NCBI GenBank assembly: GCA_964544545.1
Contig: CAZJCG010000015.1
Location: 6,735 to 70,734 of the forward strand
DNA: 64,000 nucleotides
Direction: 5' to 3'
Origin: an uncultured Lentimicrobiaceae bacterium
Lineage (GTDB): Bacteria > Bacteroidota > Bacteroidia > Bacteroidales > UBA4417
Positions within the stretch are counted from its first letter, which is position 1. Every line of letters starts with the position of its first letter. The notes below the pieces were generated by a model. It was not told the origin of the DNA and made no database searches. It worked only from the letters and a program-made list of their open reading frames with translations. This document shows positions 1 through 16,807 of the stretch, piece after piece. The position numbers were made by a program, and so were the translations under genes.

Positions 1-1409
1 TAATAGTTTCCGCCGGCAGGAGCATCGATATAAAAAGCAGGTGTTTTCTGTTTCTTGATCGTTGCAACAGCATTCACTGCCTCATCTTTTGAAATGAAGG
101 CATCGCACAGATTGCAGGCAGCAAATTCAGCCGGTAAAGTTCCCAGTTGTAATGCGGCAACAGCTCCTTCGCGGTAGCCGGTTATCGTCCGGAAACGGTA
201 ACCTTTCCTGGCCCGGTATATGCGCTCCACAGTCCTTATCTCACTCCTCAGGGCAGCAGTATCTTCGCCAGGAAGAAATGCGAGGATCACAGGGAGCAGC
301 ATATTGCATTCCGTTTCTTTTGCTACTGCATCTGCGATATCTGACTGCAGGGAACGATCCCGGATCCCGGCAAAATACATTACCGGAAATCGCCGGTCGG
401 TTGAGGAGTATCCTTCAGGCAGAAAAACCTGTATGCCTTCCGGTTCCTCACCTGACAAGCTTTTCGCATTACAGTTGCGAGTACCGGCTTCATCGGAAGC
501 CGTATCACCCCTGTATGGAACCGAGCTGAAGGCATCGCTCATGAAGCGCAGCGCGTTGGGAAGGGCCGATGTCCAGTATTGGAAGCTGTGTCCGCCGTCC
601 CTGACCCTGAATTCATGATGAATGTTCAGGTTGCGCATCAGGATGTGAAGTTCTTCATTGCTGCGGCAGAGCGTCTGCTCATCATCGCCGTTGTCAATAT
701 AGATCCGGAGATTACTGATTCGGGCTGCCGGCATATCTTTGAGCAGGTGAAACGGGCTGTGGGAACGGTAATACGGGGTAATCCTTTCTTCTCCTGTCTT
801 CCCTTCAGCACCGAAGATACTGCCCCATTGCTTATCCCATCCGGAGGCTTCTTCTGTCATATATTGCTCATCAGTCCTCACCGAAATGCTGAGTGGAACG
901 GTTGCCCCAAACACGTCGGGATGCTGCAGGGCAAGCATGAGAGCTCCGTAACCACCCATGGAGTACCCGATGAGGGCACGCTGGTCGTTACGGGGAATTG
1001 TCCGGAAAATACGATCGATATAGGGTACCAATTCCTGAATAAACATATCCTGGTATCGGCAGGAGTCATGATAGTCGTTCATGTAATAGGTCCTGAAACC
1101 CTGAGGCATCACGAATATCATCGGAACTATCTCGCTTCGGGCTGTTGCCGCGTATGCATATTGACTGATCTGACCGTATTCGAGCCAGGAGCTTTCGTCA
1201 TCGCCCAGACCGTGCAGCATGTATACCACCGGATAGGATGAACTGCTTGTATAGTAATCCTGTGGCAGGCAAACGGAGAAACGGATATCCTGTTGCAGTA
1301 TCCGGCTGTGCATCACCATTCCTTCCCGGATCAGCAGGCCGTTGCCTGCCCCGGCAAAGTTTGCTGCAAGCAGGCATATCATTAAGAAGGTCACCGTTTT
1401 CCTGATCAT
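1..1409 (-). CDS. Tandem-domain putative esterase (CE1/esterase-D-like alpha/beta hydrolase); 3' end lies outside the window
   Basis: My own reverse translation from ATG at 1409-1407 gives MIRKTVTFLMICLLAANFAG (signal peptide), then YPVVYMLHGLGDDESSW and a nucleophile elbow GYSMGGYGAL. The frame appears open to position 1, which explains its absence from the complete-ORF track. The + strand ORFs at 152-1241 are its shadows. The start overlaps the upstream stop (ATGA at 1406-1409). Confidence 0.8.
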   Translation of the reverse strand, partial: MIRKTVTFLMICLLAANFAGAGNGLLIREGMVMHSRILQQDIRFSVCLPQDYYTSSSSYPVVYMLHGLGDDESSWLEYGQISQYAYAATARSEIVPMIFVMPQGFRTYYMNDYHDSCRYQDMFIQELVPYIDRIFRTIPRNDQRALIGYSMGGYGALMLALQHPDVFGATVPLSISVRTDEQYMTEEASGWDKQWGSIFGAEGKTGEERITPYYRSHSPFHLLKDMPAARISNLRIYIDNGDDEQTLCRSNEELHILMRNLNIHHEFRVRDGGHSFQYWTSALPNALRFMSDAFSSVPYRGDTASDEAGTRNCNAKSLSGEEPEGIQVFLPEGYSSTDRRFPVMYFAGIRDRSLQSDIADAVAKETECNMLLPVILAFLPGEDTAALRSEIRTVERIYRARKGYRFRTITGYREGAVAALQLGTLPAEFAACNLCDAFISKDEAVNAVATIKKQKTPAFYIDAPAGGNY

Positions 1410-3031
1410 AAGCCCGTGTATGTAAGATGTTGATTCATAAATCCGTAGGATTCATAAAGGCCGTTCAGAAATGATCTGTGATTCTGAACACCCTGACCAA
1501 TCCTGAATTCATAGTCGGCTTCATTTTGCCGGAAAGAAGCATACAGGGAATTGTATCCTTTATAGTAATCTCCCTTATCACAACTATACAGGTAGTAAGC
1601 CATTCCCGGGTTGAACGCATCGGCATTTGCCGGCAGGCTTGCATCGAAAAGGAGGCAGCCATTCAAAGTACTTTCGGGTTCCAGGGATATTTCCCAGGCC
1701 TGTGCGCCGCCTCTGCCATTCCCAAGAAGAATTGACTTCCTCAGGTCGTTGCTGACCCTGTATTTTACACGGACCTGATCAATAATCTGTCCGAGTGCCG
1801 CAGCAGAAAGATCTGTCGCCGTTACCGGGATCTCCACAACCAGCGATTGCGGGCATTTGTTCTGATCCATCTGATAAGCCAGCAGTGAGTAAAGATCCTG
1901 CGATTCTGTTTCCTCATAGCCGGTGGTACGGTCATGAAGAGCAATGATCAATGGAAAGCGGGCGGCAGTATCGGAATAGACTTCAGGCAACACTACATTG
2001 TATACCAACGAATTATCAGGGCTTGTCTCATGCTTTATTCTGCTCTCGGGAACCGGTAAACCTGTATACAGACGATCCGGCTCATCCGGATATTGTATTT
2101 GCCTGACCGCACATCCAATGAAGCGGAGAGCTTCCGGTAGTGCGCTATGCCAGTAGTCCCAGGTATGCGCTCCGTTCCTGACCCTGTATTCATGCGGTAT
2201 TCCCTGCTCCCTCATGATTGAATGCAACGCATTATTCGTAATGGATAGAGTCTCCTCATCGTCGCCGCAATCCAGGAAAAGGGCAAGGTCGTTCAGGGAG
2301 GCGTTCTCCGGAGGATTCATGAAATGGAACGGGCTGTATTCCTTATAATACTCCGTTATCCGCTGTTCGCCGACGGATCCCGATCCGCCGAAAATCGATC
2401 CCCATTGCAGGTCAAAGACGCCCTGCGGTTCCGCCATATATTGTTCATCGGTACGGAACGACATACTGAGGACCACACCTGTTTTAAATACTTCCGGATG
2501 TTTGGCCGGCAGAATAAGTGCGCCATATCCTCCCATCGAATATCCCATCACGGCCCTGTACTGTGCCCCCCGCTGCGTCCGGTAAAGTGAGTCAATCGCC
2601 GGAACAAGCTCATCGACAAACATGTCCATGTAATCGAAGCTGCCGTTGTAACGGTTCACGTAATAGGAATTATATCCCTCGGGCATTACATAGATCATCG
2701 GTATTGTTCCTGAGGAATATCTATCAAGATAGTATTGAAAATAACCTCCCTTATACCATCCTGTTTCCGATTCGCCGAAGCCATGCAACAGAAAAACCAC
2801 GGGGTAGTCAATCGTTGTCTTGTCGTAATCGGCAGGCAGCAATACTGCATATTTCACCGGACGCCCAAGCACGTGGCTTTGCAGGACCTGATTTTCCACC
2901 AGTCGATTGAAGACAACCGGTTCTTCCGGATCATCTTCGCACGACGACTTCCGGCATCCGGATGCCCCAAAGAAAAGGGCCAGCAGGAATATGCCGGTAA
3001 TCAATGGTATGAAGATTTTCCTGTACATCAT
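1406..3031 (-). CDS. Tandem-domain putative esterase (CE1/esterase-D-like), lipoprotein
   Basis: 541 aa. N-terminus MMYRKIFIPLITGIFLLALFFGASGC is a lipobox. Motifs: YPVVFLLHGFGESETGW and GYSMGGYGAL (GxSxG). The second half repeats the fold, but the elbow reads LLGNGRGGAQAW with no serine. Confidence 0.85.
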   Translation of the reverse strand: MMYRKIFIPLITGIFLLALFFGASGCRKSSCEDDPEEPVVFNRLVENQVLQSHVLGRPVKYAVLLPADYDKTTIDYPVVFLLHGFGESETGWYKGGYFQYYLDRYSSGTIPMIYVMPEGYNSYYVNRYNGSFDYMDMFVDELVPAIDSLYRTQRGAQYRAVMGYSMGGYGALILPAKHPEVFKTGVVLSMSFRTDEQYMAEPQGVFDLQWGSIFGGSGSVGEQRITEYYKEYSPFHFMNPPENASLNDLALFLDCGDDEETLSITNNALHSIMREQGIPHEYRVRNGAHTWDYWHSALPEALRFIGCAVRQIQYPDEPDRLYTGLPVPESRIKHETSPDNSLVYNVVLPEVYSDTAARFPLIIALHDRTTGYEETESQDLYSLLAYQMDQNKCPQSLVVEIPVTATDLSAAALGQIIDQVRVKYRVSNDLRKSILLGNGRGGAQAWEISLEPESTLNGCLLFDASLPANADAFNPGMAYYLYSCDKGDYYKGYNSLYASFRQNEADYEFRIGQGVQNHRSFLNGLYESYGFMNQHLTYTGL

Positions 3032-3038
3032 TGTTCTT

Positions 3039-4610
3039 CTATTTTACATTTCCGGGGTTGAGCATCGGGGCCGGCTTATCGCCGTAAACCACGTACGACT
3101 TCAGATAGATCCTGAAATCCGGATCAGGGTTCACCCATTTGATCTCCAGTTTATGGGCCCCGTTCGGCAGCATGTATTTATAATAGATGTCGTATTTACG
3201 AACGATATAATCGAAGGGCATCCTGACCTGTTCCGTCTTTTTACCATCGATATACACATCGAGCAGAGCGACAAAATCGCTTCCCGACAGGTCGCAGCGG
3301 CTTCTGACATTCCCCAGCACCACAATGCCGTTTCCGGTGAAATCGATTTTGATGCTTTCATCCAGGAAATCTTTCCGTACAAGTAATTCCTTAACGGGAT
3401 ACATCCCTTCGAAGGATTGTTCCAGCCGCAGCACTTCAGGTTGCTGCACTTTGATAGTGACCTGACCGTTTTTGATCTCACCGCCATTGCCGGTAATAAG
3501 CTGCGTTGCATGTTTATAGCTCAGGTCGTACACCTGGTTCAGGGTCATATCGGTATAGGGGAATTTCAGGTCCTGAACCTTTTCGATGGCCGGTTTCCAG
3601 AAGGCCGGGATCTTGTCGTAGCCAAGCACGACACCCAATATGCCGGCAGCAGTTGCCGGATTGCAGTCTGAATCCTGTCCGCAACGCGTGGCAATGTCCA
3701 TGGTCCTGTAAAAGTCTTTTTCTCCATAGAGGAGCCCCATAACGACATAGGCTGCATTCACGCTGGCATCTATGTTAAAGGCGTTGAACACCCCTTCGGG
3801 GCAGCCCTTCTCGGAAGTATGTTTCTTTTCAAATTCGAACCAGCATTGTTTCCAGTCGTTGGGATACTTTTTATGCCATTTCAGTACGTCGTCGATAGCC
3901 TGATAGAATTTGCTTTGCTGCGGAACGGGCTTCAGTCCCTCCCTGACGATGAATTCAATATCATCCGAAATAAAAGCGGTACTGTACATTCCGGCCATGA
4001 AAACGCCGCCGTACCATCCATCGCCATAGTTCATGATATGTCCGGTCCGGTCACAGATCTCCGCTGCCGAGTTAATCATTCCGGGCGCCATCATTCCGGC
4101 GAAATCGGCTTCAATCTGGAAATCGATATCATCAGCATGGGGATTGTTCATCCAGTAGCCTGAAGCAGGAGGCATGATGCCGTTAAGGATATTGTAACGG
4201 GCGGCCTGGTTGGCATGCCAGAGCTTATAATCATCATGGGCAAAGGAGAGAGCGAATGAATCGGCAGGAGCATGGATACCCAGGCGTTCGATCACCTCCA
4301 CAAAGGTCAGGTCCATGTAAACATCGTCGTATAAACCGGGATCGGATTCGAAGATCTCTTTAATATAATCATCATACCACACCATAGGCTGATAATCCTG
4401 GATCATAGTCCCTTTGAACCGGAATTCCGTAGGTCCGCCAAATGTGCAACCAATAGTCTGCCCTGCCCATCCACCTTTGATCTTGTCCTTCAGGACCTCC
4501 ACAGGGATCGTTACCCTTTCGGGCAGACTGCCGGTTTTATGCCCTTTCTCCCTGCAGGAGGTGATGAGCAGTGCCGGCAGTATAAACAGGACTATCCATG
4601 CACGTTTCAT
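3039..4610 (-). CDS. Exported ADP-ribosylglycohydrolase (ARH)-fold protein with C-terminal beta-sandwich module, lipoprotein
   Basis: 523 aa. Lipobox LLITSC. ARH-family-like acidic clusters PGLYDDVYMDLTF and CGQDSDCNPATAAGILGV (compare the canonical GGDTDTnAAIaG). About 130 aa C-terminal extension. The start overlaps the upstream stop (ATGA 4607-4610). Confidence 0.8.
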   Translation of the reverse strand: MKRAWIVLFILPALLITSCREKGHKTGSLPERVTIPVEVLKDKIKGGWAGQTIGCTFGGPTEFRFKGTMIQDYQPMVWYDDYIKEIFESDPGLYDDVYMDLTFVEVIERLGIHAPADSFALSFAHDDYKLWHANQAARYNILNGIMPPASGYWMNNPHADDIDFQIEADFAGMMAPGMINSAAEICDRTGHIMNYGDGWYGGVFMAGMYSTAFISDDIEFIVREGLKPVPQQSKFYQAIDDVLKWHKKYPNDWKQCWFEFEKKHTSEKGCPEGVFNAFNIDASVNAAYVVMGLLYGEKDFYRTMDIATRCGQDSDCNPATAAGILGVVLGYDKIPAFWKPAIEKVQDLKFPYTDMTLNQVYDLSYKHATQLITGNGGEIKNGQVTIKVQQPEVLRLEQSFEGMYPVKELLVRKDFLDESIKIDFTGNGIVVLGNVRSRCDLSGSDFVALLDVYIDGKKTEQVRMPFDYIVRKYDIYYKYMLPNGAHKLEIKWVNPDPDFRIYLKSYVVYGDKPAPMLNPGNVK

Positions 4611-6253
4611 GGTCTTTCAGGATTAGGTAAATTGCTTTCAGGCTGCTTTTCCGAGTACACAACTATGTCGTTGATCCGGATTTCGTATCCGGGCGCAGGA
4701 TTTCGCCATTTGAGCGTCACATTGTGCTTTCCTTCTGTCAGTTGATATTTCCATGCAGGCTCAAGCCGCCTCGAAGTGTTTTTCATGGGCAGTTTTACCA
4801 GTCCGTCCGGCTTACCGTCAATTGTCACCTCCACTTCTGCCACGTAAGGATCATCCGGTTCGGCAAGCGCCATGGCTTCCGATCCGGCACGTTTGGCTAT
4901 CCGGTCGATATAGCTCTTATCGATCTTTGCATTCTTCACCAGGTTCCCGTAAAAGATAAAACCATTCCCCTGGAAGTCGTAAGAGAGTTCATCGGTGAAT
5001 GATTTATCGAACCTGTCGCGGTAAACGGGAAAGGTATTCTCAAAGTTCTGTTCGAAAGCTACCGGAGCGATCTTTTTGACAGGGATAACGATCGTATCTC
5101 CATCCGTTTTTCCTCCGGCTTTCGTGATCATTTCGAGGGCATGCCTGAGGCTGATATCATAAACTTTCTGAAGCGACATGGATGTTCCTTCGAAGGTCAT
5201 GGGCTCTATTTCCTGAAGAGGCTCCAGCCAGAAGGCCGGGATGTGGGAATACCCAAGTATCACCCCCAGAACACCGCCAACCGTAGAAGCATTGCAGTCG
5301 GAATCCTGCCCGCAGCGCGTTGCAATGTCAACCGACCGCGTAAAATCACCCTTCCCGTAAAGCAATGCCAGTGCCACATAAGCCGAGTTGATCTTTGCAT
5401 CGATGTTGAATGACAGGAAGACGCCCTTGGGGCATCCTACATCCCTGTCCCATTTCTTCTGGAGTTCAAACCAGGCTGATTTCCAGTCATCCGGGTACTG
5501 CTTATAGAAACTCAACACATCACTGATGCAATCATGGAATTTCGTTTTTGCCGGTATCACCGACAAGGCTCCGCTGACAAGTTTTTCAGGATCGCTGGTG
5601 GTAAAAGCCTGGGAATAGAGACTTGAAACAAAAACACCTCCGTACCATCCGTCGCCGCTGTTCATGATATGCCCCACACGGTCGGCGATTTCAGCCGCTT
5701 CATTCGGAAGCCCCGGTGACATGATACCGATAAAATCCGATTCGATCTGGAAGTCCAGGTCATCCGCATGGGGATTGTTCTTCCAGTTTCCCGATGCAGG
5801 GGGCATGATTCCCTGCAGGATATTGTACCGGGAAGCCTGGTTAGCATGGGCAAGGTGATATTCGGCTCCGGCCCAGCAGGTAGCAATCGTATCCCTGGAG
5901 ACATCGAGGCCATATTTTTCAAACATGCTCACGAAGTTCAGGTCTGTATAAATATCATCGAAAAGACCGGGTTTTTTATCCCACCAGTATTTCACATAAT
6001 GCCGGTTCCAGGGGATGATCTGCCAGTCGTTGATGAGAGCTCCCTGATACTTGAATTCAACCGGGGCTCCGTATACCACACCGATCGTCTGGCCGGCCCA
6101 TCCCCCTTTGATCTTATCGGCCAGCACCGTTTTCGGAATGCTGAATGATTCCTTGTCTTTCCCATCGGTTGCAGACTGGCGGCAGCTGACGCCTGCCAGC
6201 ATCAGTGCCAGCAAGGCGGGAATAAGGATATGGTTCAGGTTGAGCTTGAGCAT
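4607..6253 (-). CDS. Exported ARH-fold protein, paralogue of 3039-4610, lipoprotein
   Basis: 548 aa. Lipobox MLAGVSC. Same architecture, and collinear by eye with the neighbouring protein (KGGWAGQTIG, PGLFDDIYTDLNF, CGQDSDCNASTVGGVLGV). Confidence 0.8.
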   Translation of the reverse strand: MLKLNLNHILIPALLALMLAGVSCRQSATDGKDKESFSIPKTVLADKIKGGWAGQTIGVVYGAPVEFKYQGALINDWQIIPWNRHYVKYWWDKKPGLFDDIYTDLNFVSMFEKYGLDVSRDTIATCWAGAEYHLAHANQASRYNILQGIMPPASGNWKNNPHADDLDFQIESDFIGIMSPGLPNEAAEIADRVGHIMNSGDGWYGGVFVSSLYSQAFTTSDPEKLVSGALSVIPAKTKFHDCISDVLSFYKQYPDDWKSAWFELQKKWDRDVGCPKGVFLSFNIDAKINSAYVALALLYGKGDFTRSVDIATRCGQDSDCNASTVGGVLGVILGYSHIPAFWLEPLQEIEPMTFEGTSMSLQKVYDISLRHALEMITKAGGKTDGDTIVIPVKKIAPVAFEQNFENTFPVYRDRFDKSFTDELSYDFQGNGFIFYGNLVKNAKIDKSYIDRIAKRAGSEAMALAEPDDPYVAEVEVTIDGKPDGLVKLPMKNTSRRLEPAWKYQLTEGKHNVTLKWRNPAPGYEIRINDIVVYSEKQPESNLPNPERP

Positions 6254-6263
6254 GGCTGATGAG

Positions 6264-8252
6264 TTAGTGATACACCGACAATTCTGTTACCGACGTAAAT
6301 CCCGATACATTCTTTGTATACTTGTTCCAGTGATCCTGGACCTTGGCATCTCCGATTACCCGGATAGCCGTGGTGGTAACGGTCGGGAAACTGATGACAT
6401 ACTCCACAAAATGGGGCTGATAAAATACTATATCGGTTGCCGGTAACGGAGGATCAATCTGCGAACCGCACACCGGCACCCATTTGCCTTCATTGTTCAG
6501 GTATTGTACCTCGAGAGAGGTGAACCAGCCGCCGAATTCTTCCAGACAGCCGGTATGCAATGCCAGCATGCTGATTTGCTGCGGTGTCTTCCAGGAATAA
6601 CCGTAATAGTCGACCTTGGGCAGCTTTGATTTGGCGGCAAGGCTGTAAAATACCGAGCCGGGGCCGTCAACGATCCCGTCGTTCAGCACATCTACACTCC
6701 TGGCATACATGGATTTCCCGAAAGTATACCAGCAGGAATCGAGAACGCTCTCGTTGAGGATTCTCACATTGGCGATGACAGAATCGGCCGTGGGAGCAAT
6801 ATTGGGTTTACGCACAAGCAGATGGAACTGCTTTGTCCGCGTTTCGGTTCCGTTGCCAACCTGCAAAGTAATGTCATAATAGCCTGGTTTTCCCGGAATA
6901 CCTGTGAGCCTGCCCTTATCGAATTTCAGTCCTTCAGGGAGATTTCCCGAAACAAGGCTCCAGTCGTAAATCCGTGTTGCCTGTGTATAGAAGTTGAAGT
7001 CAACCGGTTTGCCGACTTCGAGGTGAGGCAACGGCCCGACTGCAAACTCCAGGGGCGGATTGAACAACGCATCCGTCTTGATGTAAAGCACCTGATTGCC
7101 GGGCTTGCCGGTCAGTTTGCCACCTTTCAGGAGGATGGTCTTGATGGCTGCATCCAGGGTCTTATCAATGATGGAAGAGATATCTGCATCAGGCAGATCG
7201 TAACGGGTAATGTTGATATATCTGTTATTGAAAGGTTGTGTCCATCCTTCCACCGGAAGGTAGAGGTTTGCCGGAAGGCCTTTCATACCGTTGATCACGC
7301 CGAGCAGTCCGGCAACCGTGGCAGCCTGGTTATCGGCATCAAAGCCCATGGCGCACGCCAGGTCGAGGGTACGCTGGAAATCGCCGTTACCATATAACAT
7401 TGCCAGGATGGCGCAGGCGCCGTTCAGGTTTGCGTTCCAGATAGTCCGTGTCATGTCCGGCTCTTTGACATAATATTTATCAGCCATCTCCTGCCGGGCG
7501 GCTTTCCAGTCGGAAGGATATTTGGCATGCAGGGCGATCATATCCCTTACAGTGCCGGCATAGCGGCTGTCGGGCGGAAGCTGCTGAAGTCCGATCTGGA
7601 TAAGCTTGCGGATATCTTTCTCGAAAAATGCGGCAGCATACATGGCACCATAATGTACGGTCGGCTCGGCGCCCCAGCTGTCGCTGGTGATGCGGGCAAC
7701 CCAATCGGACTTTGAAGCAGCATATTTCACCATCCCGGGAGCCGTTACAGCCCACACTTCATTGATCAGCTGCGGGTCGATCTGATACCAGTGCGGATTC
7801 AGGTTTTTATCACCGGTAAAAGGCGGCGTATACCCGAAATGCATCAGGCCGAGAGCTCCTCTGTTGGCAAGCCACACGCGGTCGCGGATATGATACATCC
7901 AGGCATCCCGGAGGTTGGCATAACTGGGTTCGGGACCATATTTCTCCATCTGAAGGACATACATGTATTCCACATCCGTATCGTCATCGGAGAAGGCGCC
8001 GCCGTATTTCTTCAGCTTTTCCAGGTTCTTGGTGTAGCCATACGGCCAGTTTTCGGGCCCCGGCATCTGTACATACTTGTTCTCATGAGGCAGCCCATAG
8101 ATATTCCCGATCATCTGTCCGACCCATTCGGCAGCGATCTTGTCCCGAAGTTCCGACACAGTGATCTTCCGGTAATTGCTTCCGGCAGCTGTATTGATCA
8201 TCAGTCCGGCCAGGAAGATCAGTAGCGTCAATCCACGATCTGCTCTTTTCAT
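6264..8252 (-). CDS. Exported ARH-fold protein fused to Ig-like and discoidin/F5-8-type-C-like modules
   Basis: 662 aa with a signal peptide. Acidic clusters GAFSDDDTDVEYMY and GFDADNQAATVAGLLGV. Then an Ig-like segment (LPEGLKFDKGRLTGIPGKPGYYDITLQV) and a ~170 aa C-terminal beta-sandwich. Confidence 0.8.
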   Translation of the reverse strand: MKRADRGLTLLIFLAGLMINTAAGSNYRKITVSELRDKIAAEWVGQMIGNIYGLPHENKYVQMPGPENWPYGYTKNLEKLKKYGGAFSDDDTDVEYMYVLQMEKYGPEPSYANLRDAWMYHIRDRVWLANRGALGLMHFGYTPPFTGDKNLNPHWYQIDPQLINEVWAVTAPGMVKYAASKSDWVARITSDSWGAEPTVHYGAMYAAAFFEKDIRKLIQIGLQQLPPDSRYAGTVRDMIALHAKYPSDWKAARQEMADKYYVKEPDMTRTIWNANLNGACAILAMLYGNGDFQRTLDLACAMGFDADNQAATVAGLLGVINGMKGLPANLYLPVEGWTQPFNNRYINITRYDLPDADISSIIDKTLDAAIKTILLKGGKLTGKPGNQVLYIKTDALFNPPLEFAVGPLPHLEVGKPVDFNFYTQATRIYDWSLVSGNLPEGLKFDKGRLTGIPGKPGYYDITLQVGNGTETRTKQFHLLVRKPNIAPTADSVIANVRILNESVLDSCWYTFGKSMYARSVDVLNDGIVDGPGSVFYSLAAKSKLPKVDYYGYSWKTPQQISMLALHTGCLEEFGGWFTSLEVQYLNNEGKWVPVCGSQIDPPLPATDIVFYQPHFVEYVISFPTVTTTAIRVIGDAKVQDHWNKYTKNVSGFTSVTELSVYH

Positions 8253-8261
8253 ATTGTTTTA

Positions 8262-9788
8262 TTACAATGGGTTTTGAACCAGGTTTTTATTGGCATTCAG
8301 CACCGACTGAGGTATCGGGAAAAGCTTGGCATTGTTGCCCGACGGGGGTTTATTCCACCAGGCATTCCCCCAGGCGCCAAATCGAATCATATCCTGGCGG
8401 CGATGCCCTTCCCAGGCAAATTCGCGACCCAGCTCATCCAGAAATGCCGCGTTGGTCAGGTCGCTCACCGTGAGAGGTTCCAGCCCTGCACGGGTGCGTA
8501 TCTTCTGCAGGTCGGGATCGTTGATCATCTCCCCTGCCCTGCCAAGCCTCCACAAGGCTTCGAGCTTAGTGTAGAGGACGTCAGCATAGCGGAACAATAC
8601 AAAATCATTTTCCATGTCGGTGACGTAATACTCCAGCCCATCCTGGTATTCATATTTACAGCACCTTGCGCCTTCCCATTTCTTGCGGGCCATATAGTTC
8701 TCGATGGTGGAGGTGTAGATGAACGGCTCGTATTCATTGGTGCTTGCATTCAGGATGTAGATGTCATTTCCGTTCTTATCCTTCTGCTGTCCGCAAAGAA
8801 ACGAATTACGGCGCTTATCATTCCCCTGGTACTTTTCATAGAAATTCGGTTCAAGAACAAACTCATCCCACATGCCTCCCTTGAAATTAAAGGTCGCCCG
8901 GCTTGCATCGTTCAGCGTAAGCGTGTACCAATAGAAACGGTCCTTGGTATAAACCGCATCCATAGGGATTACAAAGATATTCTCCGTTGAGGATTCATTG
9001 TAAACTTTAAAATTGGCGAAATAGTCATTCTCGATCGAATAGCTGTTCAGGCCGATCACCTTGTTACAGGCATCAACGGCCTCCTGGTACATGTTCTGGC
9101 CGATCCATTCCTCAGCATTCAGGTACAGCTTGGCAAGCAGCGTATACGCCACCCCCTGTGTCACCCTGCCATAATAGGCGGTAGTGGGAACATCCTGCAA
9201 CTTATCGACATTGCCAAGTATCTCATCCTTAATGTATTGAAATACAAACTGTCGGTCCTTTTGTACAGGGAGATTCTTGTCGGTATAATCAATTGAGAAG
9301 GGAATGTTACCCCAGTTGTCGAGGGCCAGGTAATAGAAGTAAGCCCTGAGGATCTTTATTTCCGAGACCACCCGTTCTTTATCCGGGAAAGTGATCGGCG
9401 ACATCTCCGTTTCATAAATTACCTCGTTGCAGGCGCTGATACCTTCAAAAACATTGTTCCAGGCATAGGTAAGGATCTTGTTCGTGGGCGATACCTGGTG
9501 TTTCTGGATCTCATTCCAGCGACCGTTATCCCAGACAAATCCATCATCGCGGGCCGGCGCCACCATTTCGTCCGAAGCAAGTTCATCCAGCGTCCAGAGA
9601 CTGAATTCTTCGGGGTACCGCTGGAGTTTGGTATAGGCTCTTCCGGCATTCATCAGAACATCTTTCTCGGTATGGAAGAAATTATCAAGCGGGATGTCGG
9701 AATACACTGTTTCATCCAGTTTGGTGCAGGAGACAAATCCTGTAATAAAAACTGCGACAGTAAGGTAGGTAAATATCCTGGTTTTCAT
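8262..9788 (-). CDS. susD: RagB/SusD family nutrient-binding outer membrane lipoprotein
   Basis: 508 aa. Lipobox GFVSC. SusD-like helical N-terminus and typical C-terminal segment (EFAWEGHRRQDMIRFG). Located directly downstream of SusC. Confidence 0.9.
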   Translation of the reverse strand: MKTRIFTYLTVAVFITGFVSCTKLDETVYSDIPLDNFFHTEKDVLMNAGRAYTKLQRYPEEFSLWTLDELASDEMVAPARDDGFVWDNGRWNEIQKHQVSPTNKILTYAWNNVFEGISACNEVIYETEMSPITFPDKERVVSEIKILRAYFYYLALDNWGNIPFSIDYTDKNLPVQKDRQFVFQYIKDEILGNVDKLQDVPTTAYYGRVTQGVAYTLLAKLYLNAEEWIGQNMYQEAVDACNKVIGLNSYSIENDYFANFKVYNESSTENIFVIPMDAVYTKDRFYWYTLTLNDASRATFNFKGGMWDEFVLEPNFYEKYQGNDKRRNSFLCGQQKDKNGNDIYILNASTNEYEPFIYTSTIENYMARKKWEGARCCKYEYQDGLEYYVTDMENDFVLFRYADVLYTKLEALWRLGRAGEMINDPDLQKIRTRAGLEPLTVSDLTNAAFLDELGREFAWEGHRRQDMIRFGAWGNAWWNKPPSGNNAKLFPIPQSVLNANKNLVQNPL

Positions 9789-9807
9789 AACTGATTGTCG
9801 TTAACCG

Positions 9808-12759
9808 TTAAAATGAAGCGTTCACGCCAAACACGAGGGTTGTGGTGCGGGGGTAATAGTACTGGTATTCAATTCCCGGTGACAAACCGCTCATACTCAC
9901 CTCAGGATCCAGCCCTTTGTAATGAGTCAGGCAGAAAACATCCTGTGCCGTTATGCTTAACGTCAACTTAGAGATATGCCTTGTGACCTCATGAAAATTA
10001 TAGGCCAGCGACAGGTTGTCGAGCTTTACAAAGGAAGCATCTTCGATGTACTTGGATGAATACTGGCCGGTACCGATGAATTCAGGATTTTCGAGCTGGG
10101 AGTAAACGATGTTCCTGCCCAGGCTTAGCCAGTTCTCATAATAAAGCCGGTACATGTTAAGTACATCCCCGCCGATCTGACCCCTGAGAGAAAAATTCAG
10201 GGTGAACTGCTTATAGTTGAGGGTATTGCTGAATCCCAGCTTACAAAACGGCATTGCGTTGCCGATGGCCTCCCACTTATCCGGACTGACATGTCCGACA
10301 GGATCCTGGTTTTTAAATTTATCAAATCCGTATTGATCCACTTCCAGCCAGGCCGGGCCATAGAATGTTCCGATTGCCTTGCCTTCCTCCAGACGCTGGC
10401 AGTTCAGCGGGAATGAGCCTCCCAGCCAACCGATCTCGATATACTTGTTAGTGAATTCAGAGTTTGAAAACTTGACCAGCTTGTTGATGTTCCTGTCGAA
10501 AGTGAGGTTAGCCGACCACTCAAATTCAGAGGTTTTCACCGGGATGAAGCCCAGAGTCAGTTCAACGCCATGGTTGCTAACGGTTCCCACGTTTGTATAG
10601 AGCTGATTGGTGAGATAAGGCGGAACTGATACCGTGTAGGTATATAGCAGATCGGTGCTCCACCGGTAGTAATAATCGAGAGCGCCGCTGATACGTCCGT
10701 TCAGGAAGGCGAAATCAATACCGGTATTGAACTCTTGTTTCTTCTCCCATCTCAGGTCCGGATTTGGATTAGAAATGGGCTGATAGGTGTTGATCCATTC
10801 GCCGTTATACAAGAACTTCCCGGCTTTGCCCATGAGGGTCAACGATTTGTAATTGTCAAAGTCCTGATTTCCGGTTACGCCGTATCCAACCCTTAGTTTC
10901 AGATCGCTGATCCACTTCACATCCTTCATAAACGATTCCTGATTGATCCTCCATCCAAGGCTGGCTGCAGGGAACCATCCCCATTTATGGTTGGCGCCGA
11001 AACGCGAAGAGCCTTCCCTTCGCAGCGACATCGATAGAAGGTAACGTTCCTTGTAGTTGTACATTACCCGCCCGAAGAATGAGATAAGCCTGCTCTGGCC
11101 TTTGTATGAGCCCATCTCAGCAGTGCCTTCTCCCAGGGCTGTGCCCGCACCGATATTGTTGACCCCGTAAAGGTCACTGTCAAAACCAGAGTTGATCAGA
11201 TAAGAATCATTCGACTCCAGTTGCTGGAACGTGTACCCTCCCAGCACCTGCAGGTTGTGATCACCAAATGAATTGGTGTAATTGACCATGCTTTCCAACT
11301 GTTTGTCAACGCTTCTTCCATTGTCAATCTCGGCAACCCCGCCACGGCCGATCCTGCTGGGATAGTATTTCGTCCAGTATGAGGACTCCTCCCAGTCGGA
11401 AAGGTTGTAAGTGGCCGTCGTCGTCCAGTTCAGTGTTTTGTGAAGTTGCAACTGGACGCGCACATTCCCTTCGGCATCGTTTGATTTGCCTTCGCGGAAC
11501 CTTTCATTCAGCATGGCAACCGGATTGTTGTAATCCACTCCTTCCAGATAAGTATATCCTCCCGAATAGGTATTGGTCGGATCATACACCGGGCTCGTCG
11601 GATTACGGACAAAAGCCTGATAGAACACATCGTAATTGGCCGGTTTATAGAACCTCGTTCCATACAACAGGTTATAATCGATGGTCATCAGATCGCCCAG
11701 TGCCTTTTGCTTGATATTCGTCTTGATGATATATTTTTTGGATTCATTATTCTTCAACAGACCATTCGACTGATCTACAAAAAAGGATGAACGGTGCGAA
11801 AACCTGTCGGTACCGCCGGTGAGCGAGATATTATGTTGCTGGCTGACCGGATTCTTCCGTGTGACCTCGTCAAACCAGTTCACATCATCGCCATAGAGGT
11901 TGCCGCTCTTTTCGGGGGCATACGTCTCAATCGCATATTTGAATTCATCGGCAGTGAGGTTGCGTACCGAACGCGGATTTACCTGCATGGAAACCCTGCC
12001 GGTGTATTCTATCTTGCTGTCGCCGGCTTTTGCCCTCTTGGTGGTAATGATGATCACACCGTTCGAACCCCGGGTTCCATAGATAGCAGCTGCCGAACCG
12101 TCCTTGAGCACATCGACTGATTCAACCTCCTCGGGACTGATGTTCTTTAGGTCCACGCCCGTAACACCGTCTACAATCACCAAAGGCCCCTGACCGGATG
12201 TGAGGGTATTGGTCCCGCGGAGGATAATGTTAAAGCCCGCCTGAGGATCTGCCCCGTCCGGTTTCACGATGCTAAGCCCTGCAACCTTGCCCTGCAGAAG
12301 AGCAATGGGGTTATTATACGTGCCCCTGGAGAAATCATCTTCCTTAAGTGTCGTGATTGATCCAGTGATCTCCTTTTTTGTGGTGATGCCGTACCCGATC
12401 ACAACCAGTTCATCGAGCGACGTCACCGTCACTTTGAGTTTCACGTTAACAACACTCTGATTGCCAACCGGTATCTCCTGCTTTTCATATCCTACCATCG
12501 TAAAGACCAGCGTTGCGCCCTGAGGGGCATTCAGGGTGTACTTGCCATCAAGGTCAGTGATCGTTCCGGTTTGAGTCCCTTTAATGACGACATTCACTCC
12601 GGGCATGCTCTGGTTGTCGGCTACATCCGTAACCTTTCCTGAGACTATTCTTGTGGCTCCCTCCTGGGCTGAAACGGTATGCGAAAGCATCACCAAAACG
12701 AGCAGGAAGGTGTATATGCCACCATGCCTGAACAAGTTGATTATTTTACTTGTCTTCAT
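9808..12759 (-). CDS. susC: SusC/RagA family TonB-dependent outer membrane transporter
   Basis: 983 aa. Signal peptide, carboxypeptidase-regulatory-like domain (GKVTDVADNQSMPGVNVVIKGTQTGTITDLDGKY), TonB box region DELVVIGYG, plug and barrel, terminal F. Confidence 0.95.
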   Translation of the reverse strand: MKTSKIINLFRHGGIYTFLLVLVMLSHTVSAQEGATRIVSGKVTDVADNQSMPGVNVVIKGTQTGTITDLDGKYTLNAPQGATLVFTMVGYEKQEIPVGNQSVVNVKLKVTVTSLDELVVIGYGITTKKEITGSITTLKEDDFSRGTYNNPIALLQGKVAGLSIVKPDGADPQAGFNIILRGTNTLTSGQGPLVIVDGVTGVDLKNISPEEVESVDVLKDGSAAAIYGTRGSNGVIIITTKRAKAGDSKIEYTGRVSMQVNPRSVRNLTADEFKYAIETYAPEKSGNLYGDDVNWFDEVTRKNPVSQQHNISLTGGTDRFSHRSSFFVDQSNGLLKNNESKKYIIKTNIKQKALGDLMTIDYNLLYGTRFYKPANYDVFYQAFVRNPTSPVYDPTNTYSGGYTYLEGVDYNNPVAMLNERFREGKSNDAEGNVRVQLQLHKTLNWTTTATYNLSDWEESSYWTKYYPSRIGRGGVAEIDNGRSVDKQLESMVNYTNSFGDHNLQVLGGYTFQQLESNDSYLINSGFDSDLYGVNNIGAGTALGEGTAEMGSYKGQSRLISFFGRVMYNYKERYLLSMSLRREGSSRFGANHKWGWFPAASLGWRINQESFMKDVKWISDLKLRVGYGVTGNQDFDNYKSLTLMGKAGKFLYNGEWINTYQPISNPNPDLRWEKKQEFNTGIDFAFLNGRISGALDYYYRWSTDLLYTYTVSVPPYLTNQLYTNVGTVSNHGVELTLGFIPVKTSEFEWSANLTFDRNINKLVKFSNSEFTNKYIEIGWLGGSFPLNCQRLEEGKAIGTFYGPAWLEVDQYGFDKFKNQDPVGHVSPDKWEAIGNAMPFCKLGFSNTLNYKQFTLNFSLRGQIGGDVLNMYRLYYENWLSLGRNIVYSQLENPEFIGTGQYSSKYIEDASFVKLDNLSLAYNFHEVTRHISKLTLSITAQDVFCLTHYKGLDPEVSMSGLSPGIEYQYYYPRTTTLVFGVNASF

Positions 12760-13697
12760 ATCTTATAGTTTTGCGATTCTGCATCCAGCGTAGCCAACTC
12801 TGATCTGTAGGGGATTGACCCCTGGGCGCCCATGCGGGTAACGGTGAGAGCGGCGGTTTTGGCGGCCATCTTCACCGAATCAAGTATAGATAATCCTTCG
12901 GAAAGACCGACACACAGCGAACCGCAAAATGCATCGCCGGCGGCAGTAGTATCCACAGTGTTTACCTGATATGCATTAACGAACTGATAAAGATCGTGTT
13001 CTTTGATCAATGCGCCCTGCGATCCAAGGGTGATTACCACGATATCTACTCCTTTTGCGCTGATGATGTCGGCAGCACGCTTAGCCGACTCAACGTCGGT
13101 CACTTTGATTCCTGAAAGTATTTCCGCTTCTGTCTTGTTCGGAATAATAATATAGGTGTTGCTGAGTAGTTTTTCCGACAGCGCTCTGGCCGGTGCAGGG
13201 TTCAGGATTACTTTTACCCCTTTACTGTTGGCCATCTCGGCTGCATATTCAACCGTTTCAACCGGTATTTCAAGCTGCATCAGGAGGATATCGCTTGTTT
13301 CAATCTCGCCGCGGGCTTTGTCGATATCAGCCGGACTTAAAGAAGCATTTGCCCCCGAAGCCACCACAATACAATTCTCTCCGTTCGAATCAACAGTTAT
13401 CAATGCTACTCCGGAGGGCTGCTTAGGATCAGAGAAAACATAATCGGTCTTTATGTTCTCGGCATTGTATAACATTACCGACTGCTTCCCGAACACATCG
13501 TTACCGGTCTTCGAAACGAATGTCACATTCCCTCCCATGCGTGCAGCAGTCACAGCCTGGTTTGCTCCTTTTCCACCCGGGTTCATCATAAAGGTACCTC
13601 CCAGGATTGTTTCACCGGGAACCGGAAGACGATCGGCTTTTATCACCATGTCGGTGTTACAACTCCCTACAACAACAATTTTTTTCGCTTGATTCAT
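12756..13697 (-). CDS. rbsK: Ribokinase (PfkB family)
   Basis: KIVVVGSCNTDMV, NPGGKGANQAV and C-terminal DTTAAGDAFCGSL motifs. The longest ORF runs to 13802. I prefer ATG 13697 (MNQAKKIVVVGS) because the upstream residues are not ribokinase-like and a TAnnTTTG box sits at 13717-13724. The stop overlaps the SusC start (ATGA). Confidence 0.85.
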   Translation of the reverse strand: MNQAKKIVVVGSCNTDMVIKADRLPVPGETILGGTFMMNPGGKGANQAVTAARMGGNVTFVSKTGNDVFGKQSVMLYNAENIKTDYVFSDPKQPSGVALITVDSNGENCIVVASGANASLSPADIDKARGEIETSDILLMQLEIPVETVEYAAEMANSKGVKVILNPAPARALSEKLLSNTYIIIPNKTEAEILSGIKVTDVESAKRAADIISAKGVDIVVITLGSQGALIKEHDLYQFVNAYQVNTVDTTAAGDAFCGSLCVGLSEGLSILDSVKMAAKTAALTVTRMGAQGSIPYRSELATLDAESQNYKI

Positions 13698-13716
13698 ATA
13701 GTTGAAATTTGACATA

Positions 13717-13724
13717 CAAATATA
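13717..13724 (-). promoter_or_regulatory. Candidate Bacteroidota -7 promoter box (TATATTTG on the minus strand) for the ribokinase-SusCD operon
   Basis: The + strand reads CAAATATA, which is TAtaTTTG on the minus strand. This is an exact match to the TAnnTTTG consensus, ~20 nt upstream of ATG 13697. Motif match only. Confidence 0.3.
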
Positions 13725-13830
13725 TTCACGGCTTCCGGTAAAGAATTTCAAAAATTTTAACTGTTTTGTATCCCTGAACATACAATCTTGTAATAAATTC
13801 ATTCTATTTATCTGATATTCTGATTTTTTA

Positions 13831-13893: not shown

Positions 13894-15429
13894 ATGACCC
13901 AGGTCCATTCACTCATTCATCTCATCCATTCGATGAGTGCTGTAGAAAAGAAAGCTTTCAGCAGCCATGCACGGTTCGACAACAGATGCCCCAACTACCT
14001 TACCCTGTACACCATCATTGCCAGGAATGGAACTATTTCCGATGCCGAACTCAAAGAGGCCTTTTTAAAAGCCTGTCCGGGAGCATCACTCGAAACATCT
14101 GCCAAATACCTGTTCTATAGATTGCTTGACACTATCCAGGCCTTACGGAAGACTCAGGATAGTTTTTTCAGCCTGTTCGACACGATTATGAAAGCAAGGA
14201 TTCTCTTCGAGATGTCGCTGTTCGATGAATGTTTCGATCTGCTGCACGAAGTGATGGAGCAGGCCCGGAAGAATGAGAATTACTATGCGTTGCTGCTGGC
14301 ATCCCGCCTCGAGTTGGAATACCTGCTGGCTGTCAACTTCCCGGGAATGAGTGAAAAGTCGCTGTTGCAAAAGCAGTTCCAGCTCACCGAGGCCCTGAAA
14401 TTTCTCAGACGGATCAATGAACAGTCGTCGCTCTATGAAATACTGAAATACAGGGTGCTGTACAAAGGGCATACACGCTCACAACAGCAAAAGAATGAAC
14501 TGAACGACCTCGTATTCAGTGAGCTTAGCCTGGTTGCCTCACAGAACATGGAGAATTTTGAGATCAATAAGCTGCACCAGCTCTTCCAGTCGGTCTACCT
14601 GATCAGCGTCGGCGACTACAAATCGGCCCAGCATTCGTTTTATGAACTCAACACCCTCTTTGAGTCGAACCGGCATTTGTGGAGTGACCCTCCCATCTAT
14701 TATCTCAACATGCTCGAAGGGGTTCTCGAAAGCCTGAGAAGCATTCATGACTATGAAGGGATGGGCTATTTCCTGGATCAGTTGAAGAAGATCGAAAGCA
14801 GTTCGACGGACTTCAGGATCAACCTGGTAAGCATAACATTCCAATACGAGCTTTTTCCCTTACTCGACACAGGCGACTTTGTTGCCTGCCGCACGCTTAT
14901 CGACCAGTATAAATTTAAACTATACGAGAAATCGGGTAACCTGAACCGGGTGCGACAGGCCGAGCTATATCTGTACACCTCCATTGTTTACCTGGGTTCC
15001 GGGGAGTACCACAAAGCACTCAAGGCCCTTAATCAAATCTACCTCAGGATCAAGAACATCACCTTCCTGCCTCTGCACCGCACCATCCGCCTGATCAACC
15101 TGGTGATCCTTTATCACTTGGATGAAACAGAACTGATCAAGAATGAAATCCGGTCGCTGAAACGGGATATGAGCAGCAACGATAAAGGCTACAGGATTGA
15201 ACGGTTCCTGTTCGGCTTTCTGAACAAGCATCAAAGCCATCTGACGGCCGGAAGACCCCGGGAATGGGAAAAAGTCGGGATTGCAATCGACGATATCCGC
15301 CAGGATCCTTTCGAACAACAAATCCTGAGAATATTTGATTTCACTGCCTGGATCGAATCACAATACCGGCTCATTCCGCTGAGCGATGTCCTGAAACAGA
15401 AAACTGCAAAAAGCAGTGCCCGGTCTTAA
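13894..15429 (+). CDS. Conserved hypothetical all-alpha (TPR-like) protein
   Basis: 511 aa with no signal peptide or TM segment. The N-terminus LIHLIHSMSAVEKKAFSSHARF...NYLTLYTII resembles a hypothetical family I recall as widespread in Bacteroidota. No catalytic motif recognised. Confidence 0.6.
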   Translation: MTQVHSLIHLIHSMSAVEKKAFSSHARFDNRCPNYLTLYTIIARNGTISDAELKEAFLKACPGASLETSAKYLFYRLLDTIQALRKTQDSFFSLFDTIMKARILFEMSLFDECFDLLHEVMEQARKNENYYALLLASRLELEYLLAVNFPGMSEKSLLQKQFQLTEALKFLRRINEQSSLYEILKYRVLYKGHTRSQQQKNELNDLVFSELSLVASQNMENFEINKLHQLFQSVYLISVGDYKSAQHSFYELNTLFESNRHLWSDPPIYYLNMLEGVLESLRSIHDYEGMGYFLDQLKKIESSSTDFRINLVSITFQYELFPLLDTGDFVACRTLIDQYKFKLYEKSGNLNRVRQAELYLYTSIVYLGSGEYHKALKALNQIYLRIKNITFLPLHRTIRLINLVILYHLDETELIKNEIRSLKRDMSSNDKGYRIERFLFGFLNKHQSHLTAGRPREWEKVGIAIDDIRQDPFEQQILRIFDFTAWIESQYRLIPLSDVLKQKTAKSSARS

Positions 15430-16596: not shown

Positions 16597-16807
16597 GGAA
16601 CAAAGGCCTGCCGTTAAAATACTGAATGATGTTTCATCCGGACAAGCCAGCTTAATACCAGTCGACCCTGCATAAGGGAGGGTACGGCATCCTATGCAGG
16701 TCCGCCGGTAATCCTTTCGCCCGGAGAGCGCCCTGGTGAATGAATATAGTCCAGGTTCAGGCTGTATGCGACGATTTTATAATTTCGGGTCCTCAACCAG
16801 CCCCGGA

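Follow-up and report, generated by a model that had tools for sequence, protein, structure and literature searches.

Positions 1-13802 of the window, by which we mean the whole 64,000-nucleotide stretch of DNA analysed here, carry a minus-strand operon that its predicted gene content identifies as a genuine rus-type (ribose-utilisation) PUL. On balance, we favour a model in which this locus imports an acylated ribose-containing glycan or glycoconjugate, which would be de-esterified and then cleaved by ARH-fold proteins to free ribose in a four-step pathway. The assignment to the rus type is based on a regulator gene, rusR, located divergently upstream, an equivalog-level ribokinase, a SusC/SusD pair and a RusT-type permease (Table 1).

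Operon layout and the rus core

Within the operon, the ribokinase is followed by SusC, SusD, three PF03747 (ARH-fold) proteins and two PF00756 esterases. ATGA start/stop overlaps are found on the minus strand at 1406-1409, 4607-4610 and 12756-12759, and the other neighbours are separated by 7, 10, 9 and 19 bp, the last of these being the SusC-SusD gap. This is a tightly packed Bacteroidota nutrient-uptake operon, and its genes are presumably co-transcribed. A check of the open reading frame list and the sequence reproduced exactly the eight-gene order, overlaps and 7-19 bp gaps given by the first-pass annotation, and Pfam and NCBIfam searches placed all eight proteins in the families it had predicted. 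Its claim that the operon runs past the left edge was likewise borne out by metagenome contigs encoding identical operon proteins (L001-L004), in which the last 49 residues of Est2 (518 aa at full length), a RusT-like permease and a 343-aa lipoprotein (P343) are all that follows. For P343, the match to BT0360 is confined to the non-catalytic N-terminal domain of that protein.

Table 1. Features of the operon and its divergent regulator (positions within the window)
Feature	Position	Strand	Evidence
RusR, BT2802-family ribose-utilisation regulator	13894..15429	+	NF058569 BT_2802_fam 618.9 bits vs curated cut-off 550; divergent from operon
Candidate Bacteroidetes -7 promoter box (TATATTTG; TAnnTTTG)	13717..13724	-	Regex consensus match only; ~20 nt upstream of probable rusK start
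Ribokinase (RusK)	12756..13697 (maximal ORF to 13802)	-	PfkB 3e-71; TIGR02152; PRK11142
SusC-like TonB-dependent transporter (RusC equivalent)	9808..12759	-	TIGR04056 733.7 bits; plug, barrel, CarboxypepD_reg domains
SusD-like lipoprotein (RusD equivalent)	8262..9788	-	SusD_RagB 8e-23; SusD-like_3 7e-12
ARH1, 662 aa, type-I signal peptide	6264..8252	-	PF03747 4e-28; He_PIG 8e-7
ARH2, 548 aa, lipoprotein	4607..6253	-	PF03747 6e-37; two-domain layout same as ARH3
ARH3, 523 aa, lipoprotein	3039..4610	-	PF03747 5e-38; catalytic ARH-fold ~40-375, C-terminal beta-jelly-roll ~378-520
Est1, 541 aa, lipoprotein	1406..3031	-	PF00756 1.1e-30, N-terminal; C-terminal domain looks like pseudo-esterase
Est2, type-I signal peptide; N-terminal 469 of 518 aa in window	1..1409 (frame open at left edge)	-	PF00756 3.5e-40; degenerate second esterase-like domain
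RusT-type (GRP/glucose-uptake family) permease	Beyond left edge, after esterases (contigs L001-L004)		PF07168 1e-20; PF06800 1e-6
P343, 343-aa lipoprotein	Beyond left edge, operon end (contigs L001-L004)		FN3-like domain; DUF4595

The rus assignment emerged stronger than first proposed, owing to RusR, which scores above the curated cut-off, and to the RusT-type permease encoded after the esterases. Although it lies outside the coordinates given at first pass, RusR belongs to the system; its match to NF058569 is full length (model positions 1-500 of 502, residues 1-500 of 511). When rusR is lost in B. thetaiotaomicron, ribose brings about only some 10% activation (10.1101/574913). Among the related loci, 46-49 encode a RusT-type permease. 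The ribokinase exceeds the cut-offs of both TIGR02152 (377.5 bits vs 299.65) and PRK11142/NF008353 (348.9 bits vs 341), so that the family named for the gene at the head of the operon stands, whereas its start at 13802 probably does not. As the kinase domain begins at residue 40 of the maximal frame, orthologue N-termini lie 5-15 residues ahead of the KIVV(I/V)GS motif and a candidate -7 box is suitably placed, translation probably starts at Met36.

Around the operon, an Rfam scan revealed no riboswitch or other RNA element, the only hits being two tRNAs elsewhere. The operon end is not defined by scanning for sigma-70 promoters and terminators, because their counts were not above those in shuffled sequence. 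A hairpin at L001 15388-15407 is at most suggestive of an operon end. A DASS symporter gene downstream was rejected as an operon member, since it follows in only 26 of 45 genomes and at a median gap of 245 bp, and was kept as an association.

In 47 species-level genomes, no insertion interrupts the order RusK-SusC-SusD-ARH1-ARH2-ARH3-Est1-Est2-RusT-P343; among them are members of Bacteroidales, Lentimicrobiaceae, Marinilabiliales, Prolixibacteraceae, Cyclobacteriaceae/Marinoscillum, Chitinophagales and Saprospiraceae. Across the syntenic genomes, SusD is 61-81%, the ARH proteins 62-83% and the esterases 40-63% identical. Most carriers of this RusR-led cassette are environmental MAGs from lakes, soils and sediments.

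The exported ARH-fold proteins and esterases

None of the ten operon genes has a Pfam or NCBIfam match to a GH or PL family, the mark of a classical PUL, in agreement with the first-pass annotation. Signal peptides or lipoprotein signals are present on all five enzymes, among them the three ARH proteins that had been described as exported.

The three ARH proteins score 99.4, 128.3 and 131.8 bits against PF03747 (gathering cut-off 26.2). ARH2 and ARH3 are paralogues (46% identity over 530 aa, blastp), to both of which ARH1 is about 30% identical. ARH1 consists of an ARH-fold domain with the canonical S-D-D motif at the metal site (D-D in ARH2 and ARH3), a He_PIG Ig-like domain and a C-terminal beta domain. 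An AF2 model of ARH3 (pLDDT 80.3) adopts the ARH fold, and among its best 50 Foldseek matches in the PDB nearly all are solved ARH3, DraG, ARH1, Tri1 and MJ1187 structures (target-normalised TM 0.45-0.70). A single-sequence search with ARH3 against PDB sequences returned nothing at E <= 0.01; a profile of 30 homologues does reach solved ARHs, only over the D-x-D region. ARH3 has at least 8000 homologues, all at E <= 1e-5. No substitution occurs among 181 sequences at Glu62, Asp96, Asp313 or Asp315 (ARH3 numbering), which in the alignment to solved ARHs (6dre, 1t5j, 2qty) fall on the catalytic Glu and the D-x-D metal motif.

The C-terminal parts of ARH2 and ARH3, searched in isolation, have no Pfam match. 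In the model, the jelly roll of ARH3 looks like a carbohydrate-binding domain, resembling CBM35, CBM36, CBM6 and the CE2 jelly roll by weak matches (E 5e-4 to 1e-2, TM 0.3-0.48). Immunity in the periplasm against ADP-ribosylating toxins (Tri1-like) was considered as a role for the ARH proteins and rejected in view of the SusC/SusD, permease, kinase and RusR context.

Both esterases lie far above the PF00756 cut-off of 22 bits (Est1, 107.7; Est2, 138.8), and their N-terminal domains retain the Ser-Asp-His triad: GYSMGG, the Asp of a D-D-E motif and the His of G-x-H are invariant in 56 (Est1) and 53 (Est2) orthologues, and the Est2 domain is predicted to be active. The second domains are degenerate; that of Est1 is devoid of the Ser nucleophile and gives no Pfam match in isolation, its Est2 counterpart giving only a sub-threshold Esterase match (E 0.14). 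Bacteroides-type feruloyl esterases are the best matches of both N-terminal domains, and the ferulic acid esterase 7xrt is the best PDB match of Est1 (2e-44).

These feruloyl-like esterases, together with the GH3, GH43, beta-helix, GH78, DUF2961 and GDSL esterase genes that adjoin solo ARH homologues (52-56% identity), would suit a reading in which the ARH proteins hydrolyse a non-ribose furanoside or other linkage in a complex plant or microbial glycan, with the rus genes handling only a ribose side product or regulation. We consider this very unlikely: throughout the 47 genomes, the downstream functions of the cassette are ribose-specific only, with no other sugar kinase, isomerase or permease, and minimal modules of ARH, ribokinase and RusT recur, which ties the ARH product to ribose.

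Proposed pathway and competing substrates

From the gene families, gene order, export signals and the conservation of catalytic residues and cassette described above, we infer the following order of steps and the nature of the substrate. An extracellular, acylated glycan or glycoconjugate containing ribose would be captured and imported by SusC, SusD and the 343-aa surface lipoprotein; the two CE1-like esterases, one lipid-anchored and one soluble in the periplasm, may then strip its acyl groups. The three ARH-fold paralogues, two of them lipoproteins and one soluble, would hydrolyse ribosyl (anomeric C1) linkages in a metal-dependent manner, most likely as ribofuranosidases on unphosphorylated ribosides that release free ribose. 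RusT would then carry ribose over the inner membrane for phosphorylation by the ribokinase, with RusR switching the operon on in response.

To our knowledge, every characterised ARH-fold enzyme acts on ADP-ribosyl substrates, and we know of no plain ribofuranosidase of this fold. The first-pass annotation had read the ARH proteins as true ADP-ribosyl hydrolases acting on imported ADP-ribosylated proteins, poly(ADP-ribose) (PAR), NAD-derived material or O-acetyl-ADP-ribose. Under such a reading, pyrophosphatases and phosphatases of the periplasm, encoded elsewhere, would have to supply ribose to RusT and RusK. PF03747 scores above the gathering cut-off, the solved ARH3, DraG and Tri1 folds as nearest structures and the kept catalytic Glu and D-x-D motif all speak for this reading; moreover, three paralogues could suit the linear, branch and protein-proximal linkages of PAR, and O-acetyl groups could be the esterase targets. 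We nevertheless regard it as unlikely. Hydrolysis of an ADP-ribosyl conjugate yields ADP-ribose, not ribose, and neither the cassette studied here nor its counterparts in the 47 syntenic genomes contain a Nudix, ENPP, nucleotidase or phosphatase gene, so that the cassette enzymes alone would give free ribose only from unphosphorylated ribosides. The families, rus type and export proposed at first pass stand, as does its mention of ARH genes in the rus survey, but the release of ribose from an ADP-ribosyl conjugate does not find within the cassette the pyrophosphatase and phosphatase it would need. The proteins are also only 12-15% identical to solved ARHs and have Cys (ARH2, ARH3) or Asn (ARH1) after D-x-D in place of the Ser/Thr aligned there, the jelly roll and the CAZyme genes next to solo homologues suggest glycans, and the feruloyl-type esterases are unlike the macrodomain or ARH3 type acting on O-acetyl-ADP-ribose. 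Furthermore, PAR and ADP-ribosylated proteins are minor pools in lakes, soils and sediments. The missing phosphatases are not decisive, since B. thetaiotaomicron grows on ADP-ribose in a rus-dependent manner with the help of unlinked enzymes (10.1101/574913).

Cleavage of N-ribosidic or other small ribosides (nucleosides, modified nucleosides, alpha-ribazole-type cofactor fragments, nicotinamide riboside), as an alternative to IUNH-type nucleoside hydrolases, appears less probable still. Such a role is suggested by the rus survey of Glowacki et al. (10.1101/574913), which groups ARH genes with nucleoside hydrolases as 'nucleoside-cleaving enzymes' and lists a locus mixing NH and ARH genes (Proteiniphilum Type 22a). 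It would also agree with minimal ARH-kinase-permease modules that have neither SusC nor SusD, as listed for Runella, Spirosoma and Mariniphaga (Table S5, 10.1101/574913). Minimal modules of ARH, ribokinase and permease were also found here in two loci, L075 and L081, the former with an IU_nuc_hydro gene between the ribokinase and an ARH3-like gene. However, small ribosides would not call for SusC/SusD, a surface glycan-binding-type lipoprotein, two lipid-anchored CBM-like ARH proteins and two esterases, and the conservation of SusD across orders suggests a defined, larger ligand.

Returning to the acylated ribose-containing substrate that we favour, the missing phosphatases, the jelly-roll domain and the GH3, GH43, GH78 and DUF2961 neighbours of distant homologues favour ribofuranosyl glycans or glycosides no less strongly than ADP-ribose. 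As ribose-bearing materials we considered, claiming none of them, cyanobacterial ribofuranosyl exopolysaccharides, methanopterin-type alpha-ribofuranosides, ribose-containing O-antigens and RNA, and we identified no abundant polymer in nature that would combine three ribosyl linkages with esters. More tentatively, ARH1, ARH2 and ARH3 may represent one or more unrecognised GH families on the ADP-ribosylhydrolase fold, namely exported, CBM-bearing, metal-dependent D-ribofuranosidases which, together with the two-domain esterases, could dismantle a structurally invariant acylated ribofuranose-containing glycan, one so common in lakes, soils, sediments and guts that the ten-gene cassette has stayed intact across Bacteroidota orders.

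These ARH-type proteins belong to a large family, and the cassette whose catalytic core they form matches many housekeeping genes in its degree of conservation. Should they be ribofuranosidases, a second role outside signalling would be added to the ARH fold, and classifications of carbohydrate enzymes would have to take in a new fold; should they be true ADP-ribosyl hydrolases, environmental and gut Bacteroidota would forage on ADP-ribosylated material, of which we know of no demonstration so far. Either way, a catalogued class of rus loci would be given its substrate; cultured carriers exist (B. ovatus ATCC 8483, with the Type 8 locus, and Marinoscillum luteum KCTC 23939).

Comparison with known systems

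The rus study of Glowacki et al. reportedly appeared later in Cell Host & Microbe in 2020. As the first-pass annotation stated, its survey contains ARH genes with no substrate assigned (10.1101/574913); rus loci with three ARH genes, such as B. ovatus Type 8, are already catalogued there. Ribose induced eight other rus systems 100-1000-fold (10.1101/574913). We found no biochemical, induction or transcript study of any ARH-type rus locus in the searchable open-access literature.

The rus PUL of B. thetaiotaomicron (BT2802-BT2809; 10.1101/574913) shares with the present locus the divergent BT2802-family RusR, SusC/SusD, a GRP-type RusT and a kinase-first operon. It has two kinases instead of one, and its RusGH and RusNH (nucleoside hydrolase) are replaced here by three ARH proteins and two esterases, with an extra terminal FN3-like/DUF4595 lipoprotein. 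Type 8 (BACOVA_02049-02058; B. ovatus ATCC 8483 and B. xylanisolvens) and Type 17 (Prevotella multisaccharivorax) have the same enzyme set and order as the present locus, the esterases probably included (Table S5, 10.1101/574913). Their order is ribokinase, two unlisted genes that are presumably SusC and SusD, an Ig-domain protein, two ARH proteins, two further unlisted genes and a permease; from position and the figure legend, we infer that the second unlisted pair encodes the esterases (10.1101/574913). The Ig-domain protein is 25% identical to the ARH query, in likeness to ARH1, and the two ARH proteins are 42% identical to each other, compared to 46% for ARH2 and ARH3. Types 8 and 17 differ in having a LacI-type regulator rather than RusR, and their carriers are gut or oral isolates, in contrast to the mostly environmental MAGs with the RusR-led cassette.

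At the protein level, the ARH proteins share with ARH3, ARH1, DraG and Tri1 (PF03747; PDB 6hgz, 2woc, 6dre, 1t5j) the all-helical ARH fold, the catalytic Glu, the acidic pair and the G-x-D-x-D metal motif. In addition to their low identity and the exchange after D-x-D, they are set apart by export, by lipid anchoring of two of the three, and by the fused beta-jelly-roll, accompanied by an Ig domain in ARH1. Similarly, the N-terminal esterase domain aligns over ~265 residues with PF00756 feruloyl esterases (PDB 7xrt, 7xrv, 5vol) and keeps G-x-S-x-G, Asp and His, whereas Est1 and Est2 each carry a further, degenerate esterase-like domain (~220 aa) that has no nucleophile and are encoded in a ribose locus, not a xylan locus.

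Operon layout, regulator and extent

Seven complete genes occupy 1406–13802 on the minus strand of the window, and an eighth starts at 1409 and exits the left edge. ATGA start/stop overlaps are found at 1406–1409, 4607–4610 and 12756–12759, and the remaining intergenic gaps measure 7, 10, 9 and 19 bp; the ORF table and a sequence check bear out the eight packed genes described in the first-pass annotation. Its family assignments, namely ribokinase, SusC, SusD, three exported ADP-ribosylglycohydrolase-fold proteins (ARH1–ARH3) and two esterases (Est1 and Est2), were likewise recovered in HMM searches against Pfam and NCBIfam (see table), as was the stated absence of classical glycoside hydrolase and polysaccharide lyase genes, no operon gene matching any such family in either collection. 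The true start of the ribokinase is probably 13697, as judged from the domain onset at residue 40 of the maximal ORF, from the orthologues, which start just ahead of a KIVV(I/V)GS motif, and from a TAnnTTTG box at 13717–13724 (minus strand).

Features of the locus and their family matches (L001 is a metagenome contig encoding identical operon proteins)
Feature	Position	Strand	Match	Identity to window protein (47 cassette genomes)
RusR	13894–15429	+, divergent from operon	NCBIfam 'BT2802 family ribose utilization protein', full length, 618.9 bits (cut-off 550)	
Ribokinase (RusK)		−	PfkB 3e-71 (Pfam); TIGR02152 377 bits, above cut-off (NCBIfam)	
SusC		−	TIGR04056 734 bits	
SusD		−	SusD_RagB 8e-23	61–81%
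ARH1, 662 aa		−	ADP_ribosyl_GH 4e-28; He_PIG Ig domain	62–83% (ARH1–3)
ARH2, 548 aa		−	ADP_ribosyl_GH 6e-37	62–83% (ARH1–3)
ARH3, 523 aa		−	ADP_ribosyl_GH 5e-38	62–83% (ARH1–3)
Est1, Est2		−	PF00756 'putative esterase', 1e-30 and 4e-40	40–63%
Esterase C-terminal domains	1406–2125; L001:12490–13179		Degenerate esterase fold	
Permease (RusT type), 336 aa	After Est2, metagenome contigs		Ureide/glucose-uptake (GRP); PF07168 1e-20, PF06800 1e-6	
P343, 343-aa lipoprotein	After permease, metagenome contigs		FN3-like N-domain + DUF4595	
DASS-family Na+/anion symporter	L001:15447–16931, beyond left edge, 155 bp after P343		TIGR00785 257 bits	

The divergent gene belongs to the family of BT2802; BT2802 itself is RusR, which is the candidate activator of ribose utilisation in B. 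thetaiotaomicron (10.1101/574913). An exact-match look-up of Est1 returned five metagenome contigs (L001–L005) with identical operon proteins that reach past the left edge and in which full-length Est2 comprises 518 aa. Because RusR is divergent and the permease and P343 follow Est2 in these contigs, the unit is RusR, transcribed away from RusK-SusC-SusD-ARH1-ARH2-ARH3-Est1-Est2-RusT-P343. All defining parts of a ribose-utilisation (rus) locus are present, and the locus belongs to the rus PUL family. A terminator-like hairpin (L001, 15388–15407) lies between P343 and the DASS symporter gene. This gene stands behind the cassette in 26 of 45 genomes, which span several orders (median gap, 245 bp); the symporter could take up an acid that the esterases set free, or its position could be mere synteny.

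Directly behind RusR (15601–18566, +) are genes for DUF364/DUF4213 'putative heavy-metal chelation', ATP-grasp_4 and MobA-like NTP transferase proteins, and this three-gene cluster is followed by a tRNA (18709–18792). An Xre-like antitoxin gene (PF20432/PF09722) and a RES-domain toxin gene (PF08808) overlap by 4 nt at 19282–20177 (+), forming a type II toxin-antitoxin module that lies within a few kb of the rus locus and is probably unrelated to it. The window further encodes two large cargo proteins of type IX secretion with CHU_C sorting domains (34747–38849 and 52718–55333), one of them carrying a lamin-tail domain, and a PorP/SprF protein, all ordinary Bacteroidota chromosome content. At 47994–51670 (+), a gene for an 841-aa protein containing a spermidine-synthase-like domain precedes one for a radical SAM protein.

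Conservation of the cassette

One genome per species was scanned, and all reference proteins were then mapped by blastp, which placed ARH1-ARH2-ARH3-Est1-Est2 contiguously in 47 genomes. On all contigs of sufficient length, the remaining cassette genes followed the same order with zero inserted genes and median gaps of 2–50 bp. Carriers are mostly MAGs from lakes, groundwater, soils and reactors and include Bacteroidales, Lentimicrobiaceae, Marinilabiliales, Prolixibacteraceae, Chitinophagales, Saprospiraceae, Cyclobacteriaceae and Marinoscillum, among them the isolate M. luteum KCTC 23939. A shorter variant with a single esterase occurs in two gut or rumen MAGs (L064 and L085). The strong conservation of the SusD sequence suggests a structurally constant ligand. 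One contig labelled 'Omnitrophica WOR_2 bacterium' (L039, JBLMZZ010000196.1) carries the complete Bacteroidota cassette, with RusR, SusC and SusD among its genes, at 54–79% identity and is most likely mis-binned.

More distant ARH3-like genes (52–56% identity) were found in two settings other than the cassette. Minimal modules consist of such a gene and a ribokinase, to which a nucleoside hydrolase or RusT may be added (L075 and L081). In Mucilaginibacter, Chitinophagaceae and related MAGs (L066, L069, L065, L076 and L078, around position 10000), the ARH3-like genes (52–56%) are instead accompanied by GH3, GH43, beta-helix, GH78 rhamnosidase, DUF2961, GDSL esterase, PQQ or GMC dehydrogenase and SusC/SusD genes, with no ribokinase nearby.

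Enzymes of the locus and their candidate function

ARH2 and ARH3 share 46% identity over their full length, and ARH1 is about 30% identical to either in the catalytic domain. A profile of 30 family members gave weak matches to solved ARHs (6dre, 1.5e-6; 1t5j; ARH3 entries), in which the metal motif G-x-D-x-D-(S/T) pairs with G-Q-D-(A/S)-D-C of the family, and the segment holding the catalytic Glu with G-x-P-x-E-F. Four residues, Glu62, Asp96, Asp313 and Asp315 (ARH3 numbering), do not vary in any of 181 orthologues and paralogues. In ARH1 the motif is the canonical S-D-D; in ARH2 and ARH3 it reads D-D-x-Y. An AlphaFold2 model of the window's ARH3 (pLDDT 80.3) matches solved ARH3, DraG, ARH1, Tri1 and MJ1187 structures at 12–15% identity and shows the C-terminus as a beta domain of its own. 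In a model of this domain by itself (pLDDT 80.9), it is closest, with weak scores (E 5e-4 to 1e-2), to the jelly-roll sugar-binding modules CBM35, CBM36, CBM6, CE2 N-domain and EclA.

In the N-terminal domains of Est1 and Est2, GYSMGG, Asp and His are all invariant, and the best PDB match is a ferulic acid esterase (7xrt, 2e-44). Both proteins end in a domain of about 220 aa that repeats the esterase fold in degenerate form and lacks the G-x-S-x-G serine. Its conservation is lower than that of the N-domain (mean top-residue frequency 0.51–0.52 versus 0.72–0.75), and it may be a binding module. N-termini indicate lipoprotein signals for ARH2, ARH3, Est1, SusD and P343 and type-I signals for ARH1 and Est2, a split that is consistent in the orthologue N-termini inspected; the strict lipobox pattern occurs in 33–37 of 51–59 orthologues of ARH2, ARH3 and Est1, and in 4 of about 50 for ARH1 and Est2.

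The predicted output of the locus is ribose, fixed by context: the cassette combines a ribokinase with a permease for ribose and a regulator predicted to respond to it, without any other sugar pathway. The exported ARH-fold proteins, with their catalytic residues kept, are the sole candidates for cleaving the bond that frees ribose, and Est1 and Est2 presumably strip acyl groups that block them. The ARH proteins could be ADP-ribosyl hydrolases, and rus-dependent use of ADP-ribose is known in B. thetaiotaomicron; however, their action on an ADP-ribosyl conjugate would yield ADP-ribose, and its conversion to free ribose requires a pyrophosphatase and a phosphatase, which are never in the cassette, although phosphatases encoded elsewhere could fill in. 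In view of this absence, of the CBM-like domain and of the CAZyme genes that neighbour the solo homologues, we favour a reading in which the ARHs would act as ribofuranosidases on ribosyl glycans or glycosides without phosphate groups and so release free ribose.

Comparison with known rus loci

The survey of Glowacki et al. describes about 70 rus configurations and explicitly includes ADP-ribosylglycohydrolases and esterases among the rus enzymes (10.1101/574913), as the first-pass annotation had noted for the former. In the openly searchable literature, no substrate or activity is reported for rus-linked ARH-type enzymes. Our contribution consists of the connection to RusR, the true end of the operon, the extent to which the cassette and the catalytic residues are conserved, the domain architecture and the argument that the ARHs may be ribofuranosidases rather than ADP-ribosyl hydrolases. 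The biochemistry of these enzymes is a worthwhile question, testable in cultured carriers; the existence of the locus is unsurprising to a specialist. ARH genes are named 245 times in Table S5 of the survey, which also contains minimal ARH-kinase-permease loci (10.1101/574913), and the three-ARH rus layout is already catalogued there. B. ovatus BACOVA_02049-58 ('Type 8') and Prevotella multisaccharivorax ('Type 17') resemble the window's locus in having a kinase, an Ig-domain ARH-like protein, two more ARHs and a permease, but carry a LacI regulator where the window's locus has RusR (10.1101/574913).
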